A DNA stretch of 64,000 nt from Gammaproteobacteria bacterium (GTDB lineage Bacteria > Pseudomonadota > Gammaproteobacteria > SZUA-152). The notes beneath the pieces are model-generated. The model searched no databases, was not told the origin of the DNA, and saw only the letters and a list, made by a program, of their open reading frames with translations. Positions 16,858 to 58,288 of the stretch are shown here, piece by piece; the stretch's first letter is position 1; the number at the start of each line of letters is the position of its first letter. Both the position numbers and the translations under genes were made by a program. Where the stretch lies: positions 32,334 through 96,333 of the forward strand of contig JAVVEP010000009.1 of NCBI GenBank assembly GCA_032250735.1, read 5' to 3'.

Positions 16858-16910
16858 ATTTCCCGCTCACTCCCGATATCATTTTTTCCGCCGGTCGCCC
16901 GGCATCAACG

Positions 16911-16982
16911 CCGACGGCTCTCGACTAACGCTGACGGCTCTCGATTAGCGCTGACGGCTCTCGATTAGCGCTGACGGCTCCA
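16911..16982. repeat. 20-bp tandem repeat (gctgacggctctcgattagc), about 3.6 copies, overlapping the holB stop codon
   Basis: Directly visible in the sequence. The TAA stop of holB lies inside repeat copy 3. Confidence 0.7.
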
Positions 16983-32476: not shown

Positions 32477-32524
32477 ACACGGACGGCATCGACAGACCCC
32501 GATCAACACACCAGTACAGTACAA

Positions 32525-32687
32525 GGGCGCAATAAACGAAGGGCATTGCGCCCTGTAGGAGCCCAGCCCTCTCGGCGATTCCCTTCCAACAATCGCACCC
32601 TCTCAACCCATCGGCCAGGGGGGCTGCCCTCCTACACAGTGCCGTAGTGCCGTAGGGCGCAATAACCGAAGGGCATTGCGCCGTATG
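32525..32687. repeat. Pair of REP-like hairpin elements (GGGCGCAATAAmCGAAGGGCATTGCGCC) between convergent genes
   Basis: Two ~28-bp near-identical copies at 32525-32559 and 32655-32687, each with a GCGCAAT/ATTGCGC stem. Likely terminator or REP structures. Confidence 0.6.
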
Positions 32688-33392: not shown

Positions 33393-34883
33393 TCACGCAT
33401 CCACCAAAAGATCGTTCGTAATCGACTCTGCGTAATGCAGCAATGCGTCCAGTATGTGCTGTTGCTTTTGATCCAGATCCGAGGTCTGTTTTAGCAGCGC
33501 AATGCGTTCACGCAATTCAGACAGGCTAAGGCCTGCGCCATGACTATTCATCGTCAGGCGTTGCAGCCTGAATTCATCCCAGCGCCTGTTTTCGTCTTCA
33601 CTGAGAAACTCCGGATAATTGCGCGCCCGATACCGAAACAGCATTTCCGACAGGCGCTGATCCTGAAAGGGCAGATCCAGGCTCGCCAGTTGTTGCGGAA
33701 CGGTCTGACGAACGATCTCCATTCGGTCTCGATCATCATTGGAAAAGAATCCACCGCTGTAAAGCATGAAGTCCGGGTCATCCACGGCCTCGAAACTTCG
33801 GCTCTCCTTATAGACGGCCTGCAGATTTCTGGAAAAATCCGCATGTGCCAACAGCACTGCCAGGTTTTGCTGTGCGCGCGTCACATTGAGTTGCCATTTC
33901 TCGGCCGCCGCAGCGGTTAGGGTAGTGACCGGAACCAGGACCGGACTCTTGTTGATATGCACCGTCTTGACCGGCAGCCTGGCGCAGCCCTCGGGCAATG
34001 CATCCTGTCGGGTAAACAGGCGCTCCGCCATTTCATCCGGACGCAGTGCCAAAAAGGGCTGCGGCGAAACGCTCAGGTCATAGACAATGAGTTCATTTTT
34101 ATTGACAGGGTGTGCCGCCAGCGGGGCGACCAGTGCGATACAGCCGCGCTCCGCAGGATACATGGAGGAAACATGCAGCACCGGCGCCGGCCTGGCGATA
34201 TTGAGCAGTTGGGCGACGCTCTGTTTGGAGCGATGGCGGTAGACATAATCATATAATCTGGGTTGTTTTTCTTTTATCAGCCGCGCCATGGCAATCGTCG
34301 CCTGCACGTCCGACAAGGCATCATGCGCCGCCTCGTGGCTGATGCCATTGATCGCCGTCAGCTGTTCCAGTCGAAAGCTGGTTTTTCCGTCCGCATGGGT
34401 TGGCCACCGTATGCCTTCGGGACGCAGCGCATGGGTCAGTCGCAGCATATCGATAATGTCCCAGCGCGAATTGCCGTTTTGCCATTCACGGGCGTAGGGG
34501 TCGTAAAAATTACGGTACAGGGTGGTGCGGGTCACCTCGTCGTCAAACCGGATATTGTTATAACCCACCACGCAGGTGTTGGGCTGCGAAAACTCGGCAT
34601 GGATCTGACGGATGAACTCGGCCTCGGGAACTCCCTCGGCCAGGGCCTTTTGCGGCGTAATCCCGGTAACCAGGCACGCCTCTGGCGCCGGTAAAAAATC
34701 ATTGGCCGGGCGACAATACAGGCTTAGCGGTTCGCCAATGATATTGAAATCGAGATCGGTACGAATGCCCGCAAACTGTGCCGGCCGATCGCGACGGGGG
34801 TCGACACCAAATGTTTCATAGTCGTGCCAATACAGTGTGGGTCCGGAATATCCGGACTGGCCCTGCCGCTTATGTGTGGCCAC
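33393..34883 (-). CDS. sbcB: Exodeoxyribonuclease I
   Basis: YWHDYETFGVDP DEDDh exonuclease motif I. Typical length for ExoI. Confidence 0.9.
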   Translation of the reverse strand: MATHKRQGQSGYSGPTLYWHDYETFGVDPRRDRPAQFAGIRTDLDFNIIGEPLSLYCRPANDFLPAPEACLVTGITPQKALAEGVPEAEFIRQIHAEFSQPNTCVVGYNNIRFDDEVTRTTLYRNFYDPYAREWQNGNSRWDIIDMLRLTHALRPEGIRWPTHADGKTSFRLEQLTAINGISHEAAHDALSDVQATIAMARLIKEKQPRLYDYVYRHRSKQSVAQLLNIARPAPVLHVSSMYPAERGCIALVAPLAAHPVNKNELIVYDLSVSPQPFLALRPDEMAERLFTRQDALPEGCARLPVKTVHINKSPVLVPVTTLTAAAAEKWQLNVTRAQQNLAVLLAHADFSRNLQAVYKESRSFEAVDDPDFMLYSGGFFSNDDRDRMEIVRQTVPQQLASLDLPFQDQRLSEMLFRYRARNYPEFLSEDENRRWDEFRLQRLTMNSHGAGLSLSELRERIALLKQTSDLDQKQQHILDALLHYAESITNDLLVDA

Positions 34884-34933
34884 AGTCTCTCCCCAGATGC
34901 CTGTCAGGCGCCTAATAGTCTCTTACTAAGAAA

Positions 34934-35047
34934 GCGCATGGAAAGGATACCCTTCAATCAAGACACGCTGAGAATACATCCGTGTACGCTCGACAGCAGC
35001 ATCCTTGCTGCTGACGGTCTTGATTGAAGGGTATCCTTTCCATGTGA
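34934..35047. mobile_element. MITE-like element, copy 1 (~108 bp core with 27-bp perfect terminal inverted repeats CATGGAAAGGATACCCTTCAATCAAGA)
   Basis: Intergenic between sbcB and the PP2C gene. Near-identical copy at 50708-50815 with the internal segment inverted. Confidence 0.7.
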
Positions 35048-35092
35048 CTCAATAAAATAATAAGCCGGTTTTATGAATCCATGCCGCAGAGC

Positions 35093-35827
35093 TTAATCCG
35101 CGGTTGAAACGGTGTCCTCTGCGGGGCCTGCCACCAGCAACACCGTGATGTTATCCGCACCACCATTATCCAGTGACTTCTGAATCAGCAGGTCAGTTTT
35201 CTGCTTTTCATTGAGTTCCAGACCCAGAATTTCGGCAATCTCCGCATCGGAAACCTCACCCGTCAGGCCATCACTGCATAACAGCAACTGTTGTCCCTGA
35301 CACAGCCTTCCCTGCACGCGGCCGACCTGCATGGTCTGCAAATCCGACATGCCGATGGCCTGGGTGATGTAATTGCGCTGCGGATGCACCCGCGCCTCGG
35401 CCAGTGTGATGCTGCCATCATCCACCAGCGCCTGCACCAGGGAATGATCCTTGGTGATCTGGGTCAATGCGGTGCCGTCCCAGAGATAGGCGCGGCTGTC
35501 GCCCACCCAGACGATTTCAAAGTTTTCCTGATCCATTTTCAGGGCGAGTGCGGTAGAGCCCATGCCCGGCTTTCCTTCACCCCGATCCGCCGCCTTGCGT
35601 ACGGCATGGTGCGCCTGTACCAGGGCATCCGCCATCGGCCGCCCCGCACGAATTTCGGCGCACACGCACTCCACCACGATGCGGCTGGCGATCTCCCCGC
35701 CCTCATGGCCACCCATACCATCGGCCAGCACACCAAAGTTATACTCAGTATCGATGCAATAGGCATCTTCATTGTGCTGCCTCACATTACCGACGTGAGT
35801 CAGATGACCGCAATTCCTGAATGCCAT
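35093..35827 (-). CDS. PP2C-family Ser/Thr protein phosphatase
   Basis: HVGNVRQHNEDA, LADGMGGHEGGEIAS metal-binding motifs, DNITVLLV C-terminal motif. Confidence 0.88.
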   Translation of the reverse strand: MAFRNCGHLTHVGNVRQHNEDAYCIDTEYNFGVLADGMGGHEGGEIASRIVVECVCAEIRAGRPMADALVQAHHAVRKAADRGEGKPGMGSTALALKMDQENFEIVWVGDSRAYLWDGTALTQITKDHSLVQALVDDGSITLAEARVHPQRNYITQAIGMSDLQTMQVGRVQGRLCQGQQLLLCSDGLTGEVSDAEIAEILGLELNEKQKTDLLIQKSLDNGGADNITVLLVAGPAEDTVSTAD

Positions 35828-41575: not shown

Positions 41576-42669
41576 TGGCCAGAATTGACGCCTTTTTGAA
41601 GCTCGGCCGTGAACAGGGTTGCACCGATATCCACTTCGCAGTGGGCATGCCGCCGCTGCTGCGCAGCATGGGCGAGCTGCTGCCCATCAAGTATCGCGAA
41701 CTCTCCGAACAGGAGCTGGCGAGTCTGATCGATGACATCATCGACCCGCAACAGAGGGCGCAGTTCGAGAACGGCAAGGACATCGATTTTGCCTACCAGA
41801 GCCATGAGGTCGGGCGCTTTCGGGTCAGCCTGTTTCGTAAAACCAGCGGCATCGGTGCGGCCTTTCGACTGGTCAACACCGACATCCCCAGTCTGGACGA
41901 TCTGGGCATGCCGCCGGCGGTGGCCAAATTTATTGACACCCATCAGGGCCTGGTGCTGGTCACCGGCGCCACCGGCACCGGCAAGTCCACCACCCTCGCC
42001 TCGATGCTGGACCTGCTAAACCGCACCCGGCGCCTGAACATCATTACCCTGGAAGACCCCATCGAGCACATCCACCACAGCCAGAAATCGCTGGTGGTGC
42101 AACGGGAGATCGGCACCCATGTGAACAGCTTTGCCAACGGTCTGAGAGCGGCGCTGCGCGAGGACCCCGACGTGATCCTGGTCGGCGAGCTACGCGACCC
42201 CGAGACCATCCTGATGGCGATGACCGCCGCCGAGACCGGCCACCTGGTACTGGGGACCCTGCACACCACCTCCGCCACCAAAACCATTGACCGGATTATC
42301 GATGCCACACCGACCGCGCAAAAGGCCCAGGCGAGTAACTTTCTCGCCCAGCACCTGCGCGGCGTGATCAGCCAGAAACTGGTCAAGAGCCCCGACGGGC
42401 GCAGCCGCAAGGCCATCGTCGAGGTGTTTATCAATACCCCCGCGATCGCCAATCTCATCAATACCGGCAAGATCTTCCAGATCCCCTCGATCCTGCAGAC
42501 CGGGCGCGACAAGGGCATGCAGACCATGGATCAGGCCCTGCTGGAGGCGGTGCAGAACAAGACCATCGATCCCGATGAGGCCTATCTGCACGCCACCGAC
42601 AAACAGCAATTCCAGCGCTTCGTGACCAACCCCGAGCTGCTGCCCCAGGTCAACCTGGCGATCAGCTGA
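41569..42669 (+). CDS. PilT/PilU-family type IV pilus retraction ATPase, paralog 1
   Basis: Walker A GATGTGKSTT, Asp box, TIEDPIE, Walker B DVILVGELRD, His box, AIANLI motif. The start overlaps the kinase stop by 7 nt. Confidence 0.85.
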   Translation: MLMARIDAFLKLGREQGCTDIHFAVGMPPLLRSMGELLPIKYRELSEQELASLIDDIIDPQQRAQFENGKDIDFAYQSHEVGRFRVSLFRKTSGIGAAFRLVNTDIPSLDDLGMPPAVAKFIDTHQGLVLVTGATGTGKSTTLASMLDLLNRTRRLNIITLEDPIEHIHHSQKSLVVQREIGTHVNSFANGLRAALREDPDVILVGELRDPETILMAMTAAETGHLVLGTLHTTSATKTIDRIIDATPTAQKAQASNFLAQHLRGVISQKLVKSPDGRSRKAIVEVFINTPAIANLINTGKIFQIPSILQTGRDKGMQTMDQALLEAVQNKTIDPDEAYLHATDKQQFQRFVTNPELLPQVNLAIS

Positions 42670-42671
42670 GC

Positions 42672-43760
42672 ATGAGCCGCGTCGACGCCTTTCTGGAGCT
42701 GCTGGTCAAACAGTCCGGCTCCGACCTGCACCTGGTTTCAGGCAATCCCCCGCGGATACGCCTGTACGGCGAGATCCACCCCATCAAATACCGCGAACTG
42801 ACCGAGAGCGAAACCGAAGACCTGCTGTTCGAGATCATGCCGCAACGGGTCAAAACGGTGTTGGCCGAAAAGGGCGGGGCCGATTTTTCCTACCAGCTGC
42901 CCGATGTGGCCCGTTTTCGCGTCAATGTGTTTCGCCACCTCGGCGGCATTGGCGCGGTGTTCCGGGCCATCCCCAACCAGATCACGCCCCTGGAGGAGCT
43001 GCGCATGCCGGCGGTGCTGAAGACCCTGGCCCGCCAGCGCAAGGGGCTGATTCTGGTGGCCGGCCCCACCGGCTCGGGCAAATCCACCACCCTCGCGGCG
43101 ATCATCGACTTCATCAATCGGGAGCGCAAAGGCCACATCATCACCATCGAAGACCCGGTGGAACACCTGCACAGCAACAAGACCTGCCTGATGAGCCAGC
43201 GGGAGCTGGGCGATCACACCGAGGGCTTCGCCCAGGCGCTGCGTTCCGCCCTGCGCGAGGACCCCGACGTGATCCTGGTGGGAGAAATGCGCGACCTGGA
43301 GACCATCAGCCTGGCCGTGACCGCCGCCGAGATGGGTATCCTGATCCTCGCGACCCTGCACACCAATGGCGCCGCCGCCGCCATCGACCGGATCATCAAC
43401 GTCTTCCCGCCGGGCGAAGAACCCTATATCCGCACCATGCTGTCCACCTCGCTGTGCGGGGTGATCTCCCAGCAACTGGTAAAAACGGCCGATAATCGTG
43501 GCAGACTTGCAGCGGTAGAGACTCTGATTAATAATTCCGCTGCGTCGAACATGATCCGCGAGGGGAAAACCGAGCAGCTGGAGAACGTGATTCAGGCCGG
43601 GGCGCTACAGGGGATGCAGACGATCGACACCGCGCTACGCCGCCTGCTCGATGAAAAATTGATTACCGGCGAAGAGGCCTACCGAAAGGCCCGCCAGAAA
43701 TCAAACTTTGAACAATATAGGGAACACGATGAATCACTCAAGCCGATCACCCGCCAATGA
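42672..43760 (+). CDS. PilT/PilU-family type IV pilus retraction ATPase, paralog 2
   Basis: GPTGSGKSTT, TIEDPVE, DVILVGEMRDLETI, ASNMIREGK. 2 nt after the previous stop. Confidence 0.85.
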   Translation: MSRVDAFLELLVKQSGSDLHLVSGNPPRIRLYGEIHPIKYRELTESETEDLLFEIMPQRVKTVLAEKGGADFSYQLPDVARFRVNVFRHLGGIGAVFRAIPNQITPLEELRMPAVLKTLARQRKGLILVAGPTGSGKSTTLAAIIDFINRERKGHIITIEDPVEHLHSNKTCLMSQRELGDHTEGFAQALRSALREDPDVILVGEMRDLETISLAVTAAEMGILILATLHTNGAAAAIDRIINVFPPGEEPYIRTMLSTSLCGVISQQLVKTADNRGRLAAVETLINNSAASNMIREGKTEQLENVIQAGALQGMQTIDTALRRLLDEKLITGEEAYRKARQKSNFEQYREHDESLKPITRQ

Positions 43761-44541
43761 CAGACGGACCCATGCACCGGTCTCCCTCCACAGCGGGCGG
43801 GATGCGGCCTCTCCCGGCGTGTCGCCGGAAGCGGGACAGGTCGGTGACGTCGCCGCCCGCGCCCCTGAGGCGCGGCGTCGACTGATCCTCACCCTGGAAG
43901 GCAAGATCATCCGCGAAATTCCCGTTACCGGCCGTCCCATCAGCATCGGGCGCAAACATGACAACGACATTCAGCTGAATGACCTGACCCTGAGCGGACG
44001 GCATGCGCAGATCTCCAGCGTGCCCGATTATGTCTTTATCGAAGACCTGGGCAGCACCAACGGCACCCTGGTCAACGGCAATCACGTGAAGAAGGTGGCG
44101 CTGGAACACGGCGACATTGTCCAGATCGGCCACCACCAGTTGACCTATATGCAGGAGTCGGAGAACAGCTACGAACCCACCATGTTCATCAAGGCCGAAT
44201 TCGACGAGACGCAGTTCATCTATGCCGACGACATCGCCACCCACGTGGTCAAGGGACTGCCACTGGGCGGATTCCGGACCGTGGGTGGCCCCGGCACAAA
44301 GTGTGTGATGGAGCTGCGTAAAACCTACAACACGATCGGCTTTCAGGGTAAGCGCGTGGCACTGATCACCCGTGGCACCGGCGGCTATTACATCACCTCC
44401 GTTGCCGGCACCCGCAGTCGTAGAACCTCCGACATACCCCTGCTGAACAATGCCGTTATCAACACCGAACTGACGCTGCTAAAGGAAAACGACATTATCA
44501 ACATCGCCGGCTTTGAGGTGCAGTTTTATTTTTTAAACTAG
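43708..44541 (+). CDS. FHA-domain protein (N-terminal FHA, uncharacterised C-terminal domain), paralog A
   Basis: FHA: ISIGRKHDNDIQLNDLTLSGRHAQI...EDLGSTNGTLVNG. The C-terminal domain is shared with the next ORF. The start is ambiguous (43708 or 43729) and overlaps the ATPase end. Confidence 0.75.
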   Translation: MNNIGNTMNHSSRSPANDRRTHAPVSLHSGRDAASPGVSPEAGQVGDVAARAPEARRRLILTLEGKIIREIPVTGRPISIGRKHDNDIQLNDLTLSGRHAQISSVPDYVFIEDLGSTNGTLVNGNHVKKVALEHGDIVQIGHHQLTYMQESENSYEPTMFIKAEFDETQFIYADDIATHVVKGLPLGGFRTVGGPGTKCVMELRKTYNTIGFQGKRVALITRGTGGYYITSVAGTRSRRTSDIPLLNNAVINTELTLLKENDIINIAGFEVQFYFLN

Positions 44542-44677
44542 CTGCCCGAGTTAAACGCCGAGTCCAGTCTGTGAGCCCAGAGTTGCAACCAGAACCAGCC
44601 TCAAACCCGACTCACCGAAATTCAACCATGCCACATAAGAAAGTGTGGCGAGCTGAACCTCGCAAGGATTTGCACGC

Positions 44678-45355
44678 ATGAACAGTAAACTCATCCTGAC
44701 CCTGGATGGCGAAATCATCAATGAATATGCGCTCGATCGCGCACATCTCAGCATTGGCCGGAAACACGGTAATGACATCCAGCTCAATGACCTGACCGTC
44801 AGTGGCCGTCATGCCATGATCAGTTCATCACTGCCGGAGCAGGTGTTTGCCGAAGACCTGGGCAGCACCAACGGCACCCTGGTCAATGGCAATCACATCA
44901 AAAAGACCTCGCTGCAACACGGCGACATCATTCAGGTGGGACACCACCAGTTCACGTTTCTGAATGAGGGCGAGGCCCGCTATGAGCCCACCATGTTTAT
45001 CAAGGCCGAGTTGGATGATACGCAGATGGTATTGCCCGACTGGGAGTCCCGCGCCGAGACCATCAAGGGTCAGCCGCTGGCGGGTCTACGAACCTTGAAC
45101 GGTCCCCTTGCCCGTACCGTGATGGAACTGCGTAAACCGTTCAGTACCCTCGGCTTCCAGGGCCACAAACTGGCGCTGATCAGCCGGGGCTTAAACAGCT
45201 ATTCCATCAGCCCGGTGCATGCCTCCAAGCATCGCCGCGGCACAGACACCCCCTTACTCAACGGCGAACCTCTTGGTGCATTGCCCGTCGAGCTCAAGCC
45301 CGACGACACCATCAGCATCGCCGGCTTTGAAGTGGCGTTTTATTACATCCATTAG
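44678..45355 (+). CDS. FHA-domain protein, paralog B (same architecture as 43708-44541)
   Basis: FHA: LSIGRKHGNDIQLNDLTVSGRHAMI...EDLGSTNGTLVNG. Conserved C-terminus TMFIKAE.D.TQ...MELRK...GFQG...ISIAGFEV.FY. Confidence 0.78.
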   Translation: MNSKLILTLDGEIINEYALDRAHLSIGRKHGNDIQLNDLTVSGRHAMISSSLPEQVFAEDLGSTNGTLVNGNHIKKTSLQHGDIIQVGHHQFTFLNEGEARYEPTMFIKAELDDTQMVLPDWESRAETIKGQPLAGLRTLNGPLARTVMELRKPFSTLGFQGHKLALISRGLNSYSISPVHASKHRRGTDTPLLNGEPLGALPVELKPDDTISIAGFEVAFYYIH

Positions 45356-50328: not shown

Positions 50329-50649
50329 CTAAACCTGCATTGCCATGATTTCCTTGTAGGCGCCCAACAGTTTATTTCTAACCTGAAGCGTCGCCTCAAA
50401 GGCGATGCCCGATTTCTGTTTCGCGATCATCACCTCGGCAAGGCTGACGGCTGGATCACCCATCACAAAGGCATCGCCTAGCCGCCCGGCCTCCTGCTGG
50501 ACTTCATTGACACTGTTGATGCTCTTCATCAGCATTGAACTAAAGTCACTGCCGGCGGGGCCACTCTCCTGTAGTTGCGGCGTACCCTGCGCCGCCGCGG
50601 CCATGGCCCGCATCTGGGTGATCAATTGACTGGTATCGATTTCATTCAT
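50329..50649 (-). CDS. fliE: Flagellar hook-basal body protein FliE
   Basis: 106 aa with FliE C-terminal motif (AEVMIAKQKSGIAFEATLQVRNKL). Confidence 0.88.
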   Translation of the reverse strand: MNEIDTSQLITQMRAMAAAAQGTPQLQESGPAGSDFSSMLMKSINSVNEVQQEAGRLGDAFVMGDPAVSLAEVMIAKQKSGIAFEATLQVRNKLLGAYKEIMAMQV

Positions 50650-50707
50650 CGTTGTTCTCCTACTTCAATATACAGGAAGCTGATTACCGCTTTTTACTAA
50701 CAAGGCG

Positions 50708-50815
50708 CATGGAAAGGATACCCTTCAATCAAGACCGTCAGCAGCAGGGATGCTGCTGTCGAGCGTACACGGATGTATTCTCAGCGCGTCTTGATTGAAG
50801 GGTATCCTTTTCATG
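50708..50815. mobile_element. MITE-like element, copy 2 (same 27-bp terminal inverted repeats as copy 1, 1 mismatch in one repeat; internal region in opposite orientation)
   Basis: Intergenic between fleR and fliE. The flanks also resemble those of copy 1 for about 15 bp. Confidence 0.7.
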
Positions 50816-50850
50816 TGATGCAATAATAATTCATTACAAAAAAGCAAAAT

Positions 50851-52212
50851 CTATGCCGTTTCCGCCCCATAACGCCCGGGAACGGTCATGCCGATTTCCC
50901 GCATTCGTGCCAGTTTGTAACGCAGGGTCCGCTGGCTGATCCCCAGCTTGTCGGCGGCCGTTTGCCGATTGCCGTGATCGGCCTGCAGCACGGCCAGAAT
51001 TCTGTTGTATTCATGATTCTTCATTTCATTGCCCAGCGTGCTTGGCTCGCCGTTACCCATCACATCCAGGCCAGCCTCATCGGCCGACAGGTTTTCAAAC
51101 TGCACATCACTGGCGGTGATCTTGTCGCCGTTACTCAGTATCAGGGCGCGCTGCACGACGTTGTCCAGCTCACGCACATTGCCGGGCCATTGATGCGCCA
51201 TCAGGCGCTCACACGCCGCGGTGGTTAGCTCCGGCAACGGTGCCTGGCTGGACTGAAAGTGTTTCTCGATAAGCTTCCTGCTCAGCGGCAGGATGTCACC
51301 GGTACGCTCACGCAAGGCGGGAATCTGGATGGGGAATACATTCAGGCGGTAAAACAGATCTTCGCGAAAACGGCCTTCGTTGACCTCGGTGCGCATCAGG
51401 CGGTTGGACGTCGCCAGTACGCGGACATCCAGCGCCATGGTTTTCTGTCCACCCAGGCGTTCCACCTCCCGCTCCTGCAGGACCCGCAGCAGCTTTGCCT
51501 GCAGGGCCGCATCCATTTCCGAGATCTCGTCCAGCAATAACGTGCCGCCCTGGGCCAGTTCGAACTTTCCCGGGCAGGCCTTGTAGGCCCCGGTGAAGGC
51601 GCCCTTCTCGTAGCCGAACAACGTGGCTTCCAGCATGTTCTCGGGGATCGCGGCACAGTTGATCGCGACAAAGGGTTTGTCCGCACGCGATGAATTGTTG
51701 TGAATGAATCGCGCCAGCACCTCTTTGCCGACGCCACTTTCACCGGTCAGCATGATGGTGGCATCACTCTCGGCCACCCGTCGTACCAGTTCCACCAGCT
51801 CCTTACTGCGCAGATCCTCGGCGACCATCGTGTCGGTCGCGATATTGCGTGTGCCGACATAGCGGCTCACCATGGTGGCCAGCACTTCGGCCTCGAAGGG
51901 TTTGCTCAGATAATCCACAGCACCATCGCGCATCGCCTCAACGGCCATCTGAATGGAACCATAGGCGGTCATTAACATCACCGGCAGATCCTGCCATTGC
52001 GCCTTGATCTGCTTCAGCAGCTCATGGCCATCCATGCCGGGCATCTGGATGTCGGTAATCACCATATCCACCATTTTCCGGCGGAGGATTTCCAGGGCCT
52101 CGACACCATCGTTCGCGGTCTCGGTGCCATAACCCGCCAGTGCCAGGGTATCGCACAGCGCGATCTGCAAATCCGCATCATCTTCAACCACGAGTATTAC
52201 TGCTTGAGTCAT
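50851..52212 (-). CDS. fleR: Sigma-54-dependent flagellar response regulator FleR/FlrC
   Basis: REC (ILVVEDDADL...DIQMPGMDG), AAA+ sigma-54 activator (GESGVGKE, GAFTGA-type ESELFGHEKGAFTGA), C-terminal HTH. Confidence 0.9.
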   Translation of the reverse strand: MTQAVILVVEDDADLQIALCDTLALAGYGTETANDGVEALEILRRKMVDMVITDIQMPGMDGHELLKQIKAQWQDLPVMLMTAYGSIQMAVEAMRDGAVDYLSKPFEAEVLATMVSRYVGTRNIATDTMVAEDLRSKELVELVRRVAESDATIMLTGESGVGKEVLARFIHNNSSRADKPFVAINCAAIPENMLEATLFGYEKGAFTGAYKACPGKFELAQGGTLLLDEISEMDAALQAKLLRVLQEREVERLGGQKTMALDVRVLATSNRLMRTEVNEGRFREDLFYRLNVFPIQIPALRERTGDILPLSRKLIEKHFQSSQAPLPELTTAACERLMAHQWPGNVRELDNVVQRALILSNGDKITASDVQFENLSADEAGLDVMGNGEPSTLGNEMKNHEYNRILAVLQADHGNRQTAADKLGISQRTLRYKLARMREIGMTVPGRYGAETA

Positions 52213-52236: not shown

Positions 52237-53430
52237 CTAATTTTGTATGCCGGCGATCGGCAGCTGAACAATCGGCAGTTGAACAATGAAACGGCTTCCC
52301 TGGCCTTCGATCGAGTCCACCCGCACGCTGCCTCCATGAGCGCGTGCCACTGCCTGCACAACCGCCAGGCCAAGGCCGGTGCCGTCATTACGGGTGGTGA
52401 AAAAGGGCTTAAACAGGTCTTTCTGAATATGCTTGGGGATGCCAGGGCCGTCGTCGATGACCGACAGCTCCACGGTGTCGCCCATGCCGTCATCGGCATG
52501 CAGGTGTAGCGTTCCCTGTTTGCCGATGGCCTGAATCGCGTTGTTGGCAAGATTCAGCAATGCGCTGCCGAGAATGCGGGGATTGCCTTTGACCTGGCGG
52601 TCCGGCGTGTCACTGCTGACCACCAGCGTGATATCACGCTGTTCGCACATGGCCGCCACCGCGCTGGAGAGATCCGTCAATAGCGCCTGCAGGCTGATGC
52701 TTTCCTCGCCGCTGTAGCCGGAACGTGAAAACATCAGCATGTCGGTGATCAGTGCCTCGAGCTGACGCAGCTGGCCCATGACCTTGTCCACAATGCGGGA
52801 GCGATGCGCGTTATCGAGGTGGGAATTTTTGAGCTGGGCGGCAAACAGCAGGCTGGATGCCAGGGGGGTGCGGATCTGATGGGCCAGGCCCGCGGCCATT
52901 TCACCCATGGCAATCAGCCGCTGGTGTTGGCCCAGGTGTTCCTGCAATTCACGGGTCTCGGTGAGATCGGTAATCAGCAGCACCTGGCCGGGCTGGCCGT
53001 CACTCAGGGGGCAGGTGGAAATGCTGGCGCGCCGGCCGTCACGTAATGAGATCTCATGGCCATCATCGGAACGCGGCGCAAACACCCGGGCGATAACCGT
53101 GGCCCAGCTCTCGCCCTGCAACGGCTCACCCAGCAACTGTCTGGCGGCGGGATTACACTCGCTGATACAGCCGGCCCCATCCAGCACCACCACGCCGGCT
53201 GGCAGGGCGGTGAGGATCGCATCCAGGCGTGCGGCCCGGAAGGCCACTTCACCCGAGGTGTTGGCGGCCTCCTGGGCCCGTGACTGTTGGGTATTGCTGA
53301 GCTCGCTGTGCAGCTGGGTTACGCTGTCTTCGAGCTGGTGATAGGACGCTTCCAGGTGTTCGGAAACGCGATTGAATATCCGGAAACTCTCTTCCAGGTC
53401 CTGGATGTGTTGTGCTTGAGTCGATGCCAT
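52237..53430 (-). CDS. fleS: Flagellar sensor histidine kinase FleS/FlrB (PAS, HisKA, HATPase)
   Basis: PAS region, H-box AHQIRTPLAS, G boxes DDGPGIP, GTGLGLAV. Confidence 0.88.
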   Translation of the reverse strand: MASTQAQHIQDLEESFRIFNRVSEHLEASYHQLEDSVTQLHSELSNTQQSRAQEAANTSGEVAFRAARLDAILTALPAGVVVLDGAGCISECNPAARQLLGEPLQGESWATVIARVFAPRSDDGHEISLRDGRRASISTCPLSDGQPGQVLLITDLTETRELQEHLGQHQRLIAMGEMAAGLAHQIRTPLASSLLFAAQLKNSHLDNAHRSRIVDKVMGQLRQLEALITDMLMFSRSGYSGEESISLQALLTDLSSAVAAMCEQRDITLVVSSDTPDRQVKGNPRILGSALLNLANNAIQAIGKQGTLHLHADDGMGDTVELSVIDDGPGIPKHIQKDLFKPFFTTRNDGTGLGLAVVQAVARAHGGSVRVDSIEGQGSRFIVQLPIVQLPIAGIQN

Positions 53431-53510: not shown

Positions 53511-53526
53511 AGCAAATTGCGTGCCT
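53511..53526 (-). promoter_or_regulatory. Sigma-54 (-24/-12) promoter match upstream of fleS
   Basis: Minus-strand sequence aGGCACgcaatTTGCt, matching TGGCAC-N5-TTGCW. About 80 nt upstream of the fleS start. Confidence 0.55.
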
Positions 53527-58240: not shown

Positions 58241-58288
58241 CAGAACTACAACCAGAACTACAACCAGAACTACAACCAGAACTACAAG
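58241..58288. repeat. 12-bp tandem repeat (cagaactacaac) x4 in the flaG-fliD intergenic region / fliD 5' leader
   Basis: Directly visible in the sequence. Lies 18 nt upstream of the fliD start on the coding strand. Confidence 0.7.

Follow-up and report, generated by a model that had tools for sequence, protein, structure and literature searches.

The window, a 64-kb stretch of DNA (64,000 nucleotides), contains two copies of a short element, at positions 34924-35062 (copy 1) and 50695-50828 (copy 2). The two sequences are very probably copies of a non-autonomous DNA transposon of the MITE (miniature inverted-repeat transposable element) type, which targets TA, relies on a transposase supplied elsewhere, and had its core flipped later in copy 1. 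The element is 134–139 bp long and non-coding, without an open reading frame of its own. It has the properties by which MITEs are recognized: a non-coding sequence shorter than 500 bp, terminal inverted repeats, dispersed copies, and sites that exist both filled and empty. An autonomous partner, which is a further such property, was not found in the loci and collections searched. The element itself encodes nothing, and its movement would therefore depend on a transposase from another source. Over half of all prokaryotic genomes contain MITEs, whose families are mostly genus-specific (PMC11602168). The family described here is new as a family; its kind is well known, and the recognition of the element as a MITE is in itself routine. 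Beyond the routine are the ~94% identity of copies from hosts whose SbcB proteins share 56% identity, and the rare isomers in which the core is flipped within fixed ends.

The 27-nucleotide arm CATGGAAAGGATACCCTTCAATCAAGA has four matches in the window. Three of them are exact, at 34937-34963(+), 35018-35044(-), and 50708-50734(+), and the fourth, at 50789-50815(-), contains a single mismatch. No matches were found in 100 dinucleotide-preserving shuffles of the window, and none is expected by chance. The arm search and the shuffles agree with the earlier note, which had described two copies with 27-bp inverted arms and one mismatch in copy 2. Apart from two differences, the 54-bp cores of the two copies are reverse complements, and a repeat finder reports the inner 113 nucleotides of both copies as an inverted repeat with 96% complementarity, in keeping with the reversal of the ~54-bp inner segment that the same note had seen. 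The ends of the two copies form direct repeats, on the left between 34923-34964 and 50694-50735 (95%) and on the right between 35017-35055 and 50788-50826 (92%). That copy 2 is copy 1 inserted the other way round is ruled out: the ends of both copies have the same orientation, and the flip in copy 1 is confined to its core. Both copies are intergenic, and the genes named as their neighbors, sbcB and the PP2C gene for copy 1 and fleR and fliE for copy 2, were confirmed by Pfam. The PP2C phosphatase gene (35093-35827, minus strand) lies upstream of copy 1, and sbcB (33393-34883, minus strand), which encodes SbcB/exonuclease I with a sequence 100% identical to MDT8384208.1, lies downstream. Copy 2 is preceded by a gene for a fleR-type sigma-54 response regulator (50851-52212, minus strand) and followed by fliE (50329-50649, minus strand).

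The unit of the family is 134 bp long, with TA at each tip, 40-bp imperfect terminal inverted repeats, and a 54-bp core that contains two small hairpins. The inner 27 nucleotides of the 40-bp repeats are perfectly complementary, and the outer 13 nucleotides are asymmetric between left and right: the terminal TACTA pairs with TAGTA, and an asymmetric stretch of eight nucleotides follows. The left end of the family reads TACTAACAA(AA/GG)CG and the right end T(A/G)ACTCAATAGTA. In the alignment of 52 copies, conservation extends 13 nucleotides past each arm and stops exactly at TACTA...TAGTA. Because conservation runs 13 nucleotides beyond the arms, the unit is 134 bp long and the similar flanks belong to the element. 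The unit of ~108 bp proposed previously, placed at 34934-35047, brackets the arms of copy 1 and is shorter than the family unit, which extends each copy to the limits given above. The similarity of ~15 bp of flanking sequence, noted at the same time, is real, but it belongs to the outer 13 nucleotides of the element and not to its flanks.

Copy 1 (34924-35062, plus strand) is 139 bp long, including TA at each end, and its extent is defined by the empty allele and by the boundaries of the family. It starts with the outer left end TACTAAGAAAGCG (34924-34936, plus strand; family consensus TACTAACAAGGCG), which is followed by the left 27-bp arm (34937-34963, plus strand, from the arm search), the 54-bp core (34964-35017, minus strand), the right 27-bp arm (35018-35044, plus strand), which is a perfect complement of the left one, and the outer right end TGACTC-AATAA-AATAA-TA (35045-35062, plus strand). 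This right end is the family end TGACTCAATAATA with an additional 5-bp tandem duplication (AATAA). The ends of copy 1 are oriented as in the family consensus, and its core is inverted. The features of the core are assigned from the folds and from the match of the minus strand to the RNA family TwoAYGGAY: hairpin 2 is at 34970-34991 and hairpin 1 at 34994-35013, and the GGA-containing loops (AAGGAU and ACGGAU) are on the minus strand, in the sense direction of PP2C and sbcB. Copy 2 (50695-50828, plus strand) has the canonical arrangement of 134 bp, with the outer left end TACTAACAAGGCG (50695-50707), left arm (50708-50734, from the arm search), core (50735-50788, from the folds; hairpin 1 at 50739-50758 and hairpin 2 at 50761-50782), right arm (50789-50815), and outer right end TGATGCAATAATA (50816-50828), all on the plus strand. 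The one mismatch in its right arm, CCTTTTCATG, is a subfamily variant that metagenome copies also have. In copy 2, the GGA loops are on the plus strand, which runs antisense to fleR and fliE.

When one genome per species was scanned with an arm-derived 19-mer, 97 stretches were identified, all but one of which come from TamC13-13, GH5, and LH_M37, which are related uncultured gammaproteobacterial metagenome-assembled genomes (MAGs). The remaining stretch, from an alphaproteobacterium (L071), was rejected as a chance match, since it has no further similarity to the element. The further copies that the earlier note had called for were found by BLAST with a full copy, at 113 places in ~0.65 Mb of loci from the three MAGs, and by a metagenome scan, which gave 11 copies in 10 loci, all of them MITE-sized. 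TamC13-13 has 42 full-length copies, 47 cut at a contig or locus end, and three internal partial copies; the corresponding numbers are 12, six, and zero for GH5, one, zero, and zero for LH_M37, and two, zero, and zero for the window. One internal partial copy (L090:2741-2797) was examined; it represents a copy with an internal deletion and not an insertion sequence (IS) end. A repeat that disrupts short-read assembly typically leaves copies truncated at contig ends, and with 47 such contig- or locus-end partials in a single MAG the element is worth masking or annotating in these lineages. Neither the arm sequence nor the names of the MAGs gave a result in a literature search.

Many of the TamC13-13 copies are 100% identical to the reference copy L003 across 134 bp, and the copies of this MAG share a mean identity of 98% with their own consensus. 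Most of them have ends of the type ...AAAACG and TAACTC...; a few have a left end of the AAGG type (AAGGTG), some of these together with a TGACTC right end. This pattern of identity and end types is consistent with a recent burst that started from a single master copy. The left ends of the GH5 and window copies are AAGGCG. The window copies are 94–95.5% identical to the consensus sequences of the MAGs and have diagnostic bases in common with the metagenome copies, one of them the arm mismatch of copy 2. The SbcB of the window shares 55.6% sequence identity with that of TamC13-13. Because the hosts are this far apart and yet the copies are ~94% identical, the family has moved horizontally. In one relative the element has been amplified to ~100 copies, and it has spread among distantly related Gammaproteobacteria.

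Empty alleles provide evidence of insertion at both window loci. Relatives for copy 1 were taken from the 90%-identity cluster of MDT8384208.1, with proteins from public sequencing-run assemblies (L110-L113). The spacer between PP2C and sbcB measures 72 bp in these relatives, the SbcB proteins of which are at least 90% identical to that of the window, and 209 bp in the window; the difference between the spacers is exactly the 139-bp element. The empty allele reads AGTCTCT-CA-AGCCGG, and the window AGTCTCT-[TACTAAG...AATAATA]-AGCCGG. Because the alignment to the empty allele is clean, it fixes the limits of copy 1 at 34924-35062. More distant relatives, with SbcB ~80% identical, also have a PP2C–sbcB spacer free of the element. 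The spacer between fleR and fliE is 90 or 42 bp long in relatives, where it contains neither arms nor core, and 201 bp long in the window. The spacers of close relatives are thus short and free of the element at either locus, which makes both window copies recent insertions.

The intergenic DNA of the MAGs (~90% identity) is mostly too diverged for comparisons of filled and empty sites between them, and the usable comparison is that of loci L065, L051, and L035. LH_M37 has the empty site ...CATG-TA-ACTG..., which is filled in GH5. The left half of this site aligns with the DNA immediately outside the left end of a GH5 copy (L051), the right half with that immediately outside the right end of a GH5 copy (L035), and there is TA at each junction. 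The stretch between the two GH5 junctions is incompletely assembled; a further palindromic repeat, unrelated to the element, lies within it.

Almost all copies have TA at both limits (TA...TA). A weak palindromic consensus is seen in the flanks of 52 copies, with A at position -3 in 37 and T at position +3 in 35 of the 52, T or A at -1, and A or T at +1, which corresponds to the target A-N-W-TA-W-N-T. The element lands at a TA of such a weakly palindromic target, in intergenic DNA and in either orientation. A duplication of TA at insertion, the target-site duplication that had been suggested as worth looking for, is likely. TA is present once in two of the empty alleles, and the right junction TA|AAAAGC of copy 2 is preserved in its empty allele; however, the left junction of the latter contains an extra indel, and the empty allele of copy 1 has CA at the insertion point, one transition away from TA. 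IS630/Tc1-mariner-type enzymes typically target TA, as do several bacterial MITEs (PMC2229807, PMC2649163).

An element that encodes the partner transposase is expected to have the ends CTAACAARRCGCATGGAAAGG and its inverted complement. Neither an IS-sized element with matching ends nor a solo end or a long repeat turned up in the 0.65 Mb of related DNA, and neither BLAST against plasmids and phages nor a scan of viral contigs gave a match to the element. A cognate IS630 or IS200/605 transposase, which had been put forward as a candidate partner, was not found in the loci and collections searched. Like the element, RUP of Streptococcus pneumoniae and other IS630-dependent MITEs are small, have terminal inverted repeats, and insert at TA (PMC2229807). 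However, RUP has a partner with matching ends, IS630-Spn1, and none was found for the element in the DNA searched.

The core of the element resembles sequences that have been described in other bacteria. The consensus of the Rfam family Ysr224 (RF02770), which is the opposite strand of the Yersinia palindromic repeat YPAL/RU-2, aligns to the core with a local score of 45, compared with a mean of 14 and a maximum of 25 for shuffled sequences. The reverse complement of RU-2 is a nearly perfect match to the Ysr224 consensus, and one of the RU-2 hairpins matches the consensus of TwoAYGGAY. The published RU-2/YPAL of Y. pestis (168 nucleotides; PMC2759123, Table 1b) aligns to the core with a score of 40 over 58 nucleotides that include both hairpins, a score that none of 1000 shuffles reached (maximum 26). 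In a permissive Rfam scan, copy 1 matched the full-length model of TwoAYGGAY (RF01731) with 39.0 bits (E = 3.9e-5, minus strand, 34929-35052), and the flipped copy from GH5 also matched the full-length model, with 35.6 bits. Both matches are restricted to the GGA-loop strand and are below the gathering score of 43; two canonical copies had no TwoAYGGAY match in the same permissive scan. The Ysr224 model gave 17–24 bits against a gathering score of 70, and at gathering thresholds Rfam reported only tRNAs in the window and 18 loci. The TwoAYGGAY scores need care, because long perfect hairpins also draw 20–28 bits from unrelated miRNA models. The tests on primary sequence are more convincing than the model scores as evidence of homology of the core.

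The MFE folds of both copies and of the consensus contain two successive hairpins with GGA-containing loops on a common, enclosing basal stem, which is the architecture of TwoAYGGAY. The ACGGAU loop of hairpin 2 fits the AYGGAY motif, and the loop of hairpin 1, AGGGAU or, in flipped copies, AAGGAU, differs from it by a purine at the Y position. Furthermore, ~35 nucleotides of the TwoAYGGAY model between the stem and the hairpins are absent from the element, and hairpin 2 of the element is shorter. YPAL/RU-2 shares with the element the central module of two hairpins, homologous to the core, and both are multi-copy, intergenic, non-coding, mobile, and capable of forming long hairpins (PMC2229807). 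By contrast, YPAL is ~168 bp long, lacks TA termini, has internal inverted repeats, and generates variable duplications of 3–26 bp adjacent to dyad symmetries (PMC2229807), whereas the element is 134 bp long, with 40-bp terminal repeats that end in TA and a TA target. There is no detectable similarity between the arms of the two elements. Judged from their sequences, YPAL, Ysr224, and TwoAYGGAY appear to be the same kind of module, of which the MITE carries a diverged copy between unrelated arms. In Pseudomonas, TwoAYGGAY has a high and variable copy number, its expansion has been called ‘mobile-element-like’ with mobility suspected, and it includes forms with extensions and flanking repeats (bioRxiv 10.64898/2026.09.22.753630). 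No such extensions or repeats were noticed around the element. YPAL, Ysr224, and MITEs are unmentioned in that preprint.

The resemblance of the core prompts one to ask if the sequence is a functional structured RNA in the first place, a member of the TwoAYGGAY/YPAL/Ysr224 group serving as a CsrA/RsmA sponge or as a cis-acting mRNA tag, with mobility as a secondary property. Such a role is conceivable but unlikely. It would account for the significant similarity of the core to Ysr224 and YPAL/RU-2 and for the two TwoAYGGAY matches, which cover the whole model on the GGA-loop strand. Hairpin 2 read on that strand, GUACACGGAUGU, agrees with 11 of the 12 positions of the CsrA SELEX consensus RUACARGGAUGU (PMC4347634), with GGA in the loop, and hairpin 1 presents a second GGA loop 23 nucleotides upstream of that of hairpin 2. 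TwoAYGGAY has been proposed to bind CsrA (PMC4333381), and Ysr224 was discovered in Yersinia as a temperature-responsive sRNA (PMC9029176). If transcribed from the right strand, the element would present two hairpins with GGA loops such as CsrA/RsmA binds. A possible binding of the core by CsrA is a lead from sequence resemblance; a motif search for a csrA gene in the window and the loci found none, which in so small a sample is uninformative. RNA fold prediction, a check proposed in the earlier note, gave very stable hairpins on both strands (from -66 to -78 kcal/mol; z-scores between -10 and -14), which would also be expected of a structured RNA.

Several observations speak against RNA function as the primary role. 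Genes called simply from their ORFs place nearly all copies between genes, and the copies are oriented at random to their neighbors, with 12, 11, 11, and nine copies in the four possible arrangements; between co-directional genes, nine copies are sense and 11 antisense. The GGA strand of copy 2 is among those antisense to the adjacent genes. Scans for sigma-70-like promoters, which took in the window copies with their immediate surroundings and the consensus copy itself, detected none. Pairing is kept at 97.5% among 44 distinct copies and at 97.4% in column shuffles, and the covariation signal is absent because the copies are too alike. No copy reaches an Rfam gathering score, canonical copies are without a TwoAYGGAY match, and the bits that miRNA models assign to long perfect hairpins count against the model scores as well. 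There is no evidence of host selection on orientation or structure. Of the structured sRNA that had been considered as an alternative to a MITE, the TwoAYGGAY-like shape and the homology of the core stand, but the random orientation and the lack of a promoter-like site in the sequences scanned speak against it. A selected function as a terminator or mRNA stabilizer was also considered and rejected on account of the random orientation; a terminator scan gave no terminator-like match in the window copies. In one subfamily, the left end read backwards forms a U-rich tail after a hairpin.

In 51 of 55 full copies, the core has a fixed orientation with respect to the asymmetric ends, and this canonical arrangement, in which the left end is followed by CCGTCAGCAGCAGGG..., accounts for ~95% of copies and includes window copy 2. 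Proper ends with a reversed core occur in three of ~65 full copies: window copy 1, L094:546-679 from GH5, and L026:2900-3025 from TamC13-13. Two further copies, L013 and L067, have a right-type end on both sides, which is the product expected of recombination between the arms of two copies or of a template-switch ‘correction’ of the palindrome. In copy 1, the core probably inverted later, between the 27-bp arms, which would leave the ends of this copy in the orientation of copy 2. The simplest mechanism for such a flip would be an exchange between the arms of one copy, by homologous recombination or by a switch of strand or template during replication. The flipped copies from the window and GH5 each have the marker bases of their own lineage; they share the loop base in CAAGGATG, instead of CAGGGATG, which is present in no canonical copy. 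Simple independent flipping does not account for this common base.

The presence of the core in both orientations between identical inverted repeats, with the ends fixed, is also what a programmed switch would produce, in which a site-specific recombinase inverts the core between the 27-bp repeats and alters the expression of the neighboring genes. The in-situ inversion of Correia elements, recorded in a passage of PMC10969869 that cites Elbeyioglu 2017, lends this idea some support and is a precedent for the flipping of a MITE. Nevertheless, a programmed switch is very improbable here. Switches of the fimS or hin type have an adjacent recombinase and an outward promoter; by contrast, no recombinase gene adjoins either window copy, the neighbors being sbcB, PP2C, fleR, and fliE, and the core is without a promoter-like site. 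Moreover, only three of the ~65 full copies are flipped, and each assembly contains a single orientation. By description, the Correia/NEMIS elements of Neisseria are similar to the element in more than their inversion: they are 100–160 bp long and non-coding, have long terminal inverted repeats, a TA target, and no known transposase, and their transcripts form long hairpins (PMC2649163). The element differs from them in that scans of the window and consensus copies revealed no promoter-like sites, and in that only the core between the inner arms flips, while the outer ends stay in place.

An intergenic, multi-copy, and strongly palindromic sequence could also be a REP/BIME-like palindrome spread by a RAYT (TnpA-REP), or a palindrome moved by IS200/IS605, and not an element moved by a DDE transposase. 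The REP-like module that had been offered as an alternative is, however, likewise very improbable. The element is 134 bp long and not 20–40 bp, its long terminal inverted repeats end in TA, its empty sites contain TA, and the consensus of its target is palindromic. Long repeats ending in TA and a palindromic TA target are not features of REP or IS200/605-type elements as these families are commonly described. Chance resemblance, or descent of the two copies from a larger segmental duplication, which the earlier note had named as a refutation, can be dismissed almost entirely, since no arm matches are expected by chance, the likeness between copy 1 and copy 2 is confined within the boundaries of the element, and more than 120 copies are found in unrelated contexts. 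The MITE favored by the earlier note is thus upheld by its dispersed copies, by the empty sites in relatives, and by the absence of a larger duplication.

As a MITE, the element is a clean sequence-level case of a TwoAYGGAY-like module that behaves like a transposon: it has terminal repeats and a TA target, and its sites occur filled as well as empty. It joins the YPAL/RU-2 repeat, the sRNA Ysr224, and TwoAYGGAY, which are handled separately in the literature compared. It is tempting to speculate, although we regard it as rather unlikely, that the TwoAYGGAY/YPAL module is a portable CsrA/RsmA-binding cassette that travels on different mobile chassis, among them the TA-targeting element, YPAL, and the extended forms in Pseudomonas. 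If this were the case, transposition would spread Csr/Rsm sites into new transcripts, and a flip of the core would switch the DNA strand that encodes them. Genomes would thereby gain a mobile means to rewire or titrate a global post-transcriptional regulator.

Two genomes related to that of the window, the MAGs TamC13-13 and GH5, each carry a copy of the element at two syntenic loci (L029/L087 and L051/L095). The copies occupy the same intergenic region in the same orientation in both genomes, and are 96–97% conserved, far above the adjoining spacer; the end type of each copy is that of its own genome. Either independent strikes at a preferred site or the homogenisation of old copies could explain this pattern.

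Two core-flipped copies of different lineages, window copy 1 (34924–35062) and that at L094:546-679, share a variant of the hairpin-1 loop, CAAGGATG, that is found in no canonical copy. They are also the only copies matched by the model of the TwoAYGGAY RNA motif (Rfam RF01731).

Other repeats are present in the relatives. A palindromic repeat of ~240 bp in GH5 (L051:7557-7800), with the ends AAAGCTTTTAATTCTTGAGTCCGCAAGATGAACGC ... GCGTTCATCTTGCGGGCTCATGAATTAGCACTTAAAAGCT, is unrelated to the element and directly adjoins one of its copies, which suggests a further MITE-like family and the clustering of small repeats. Another intergenic repeat of GH5 (...ttctaactttgccatgcatgc...cgattacgctacgctaatcggacctacga...; L035) occurs at least three times in 4.6 kb. 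The PP2C-sbcB spacer of a more distant relative holds, instead of the element, a tandem array of ~12-nt units, ATTTCCGGTAGC / ATTTCCGACATCG (L098:2830-2990).

The window itself contains two near-identical 29-nt palindromic units, AGGGCGCAATAA(A/C)CGAAGGGCATTGCGCC, in direct orientation 130 bp apart (32524–32552 and 32654–32682), which could be REP-like or terminator-like hairpins. Short tandem arrays are located at 16904–16980 (period 20 nt, ...CGCTGACGGCTCTCGATTAG...) and 58241–58287 (CAGAACTACAAC, in three identical copies). Tandem paralogous segments that have diverged to ~75–79% identity form two pairs, at 41945–43397 and 43940–45344, with a spacing of 1097 and ~810 bp; they look like adjacent duplicated genes.

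Copy 2 of the element occupies most of the 201-bp fleR-fliE spacer. The gene for the fleS-like histidine kinase (52237–53430) has a match to a sigma-54-type promoter, AGGCACGCAATTTGCT, upstream of it, on the minus strand at 53511–53526. Because no comparable match was found in the fleR-fliE spacer, fliE may be transcribed by read-through from fleSR or from an unrecognised promoter.
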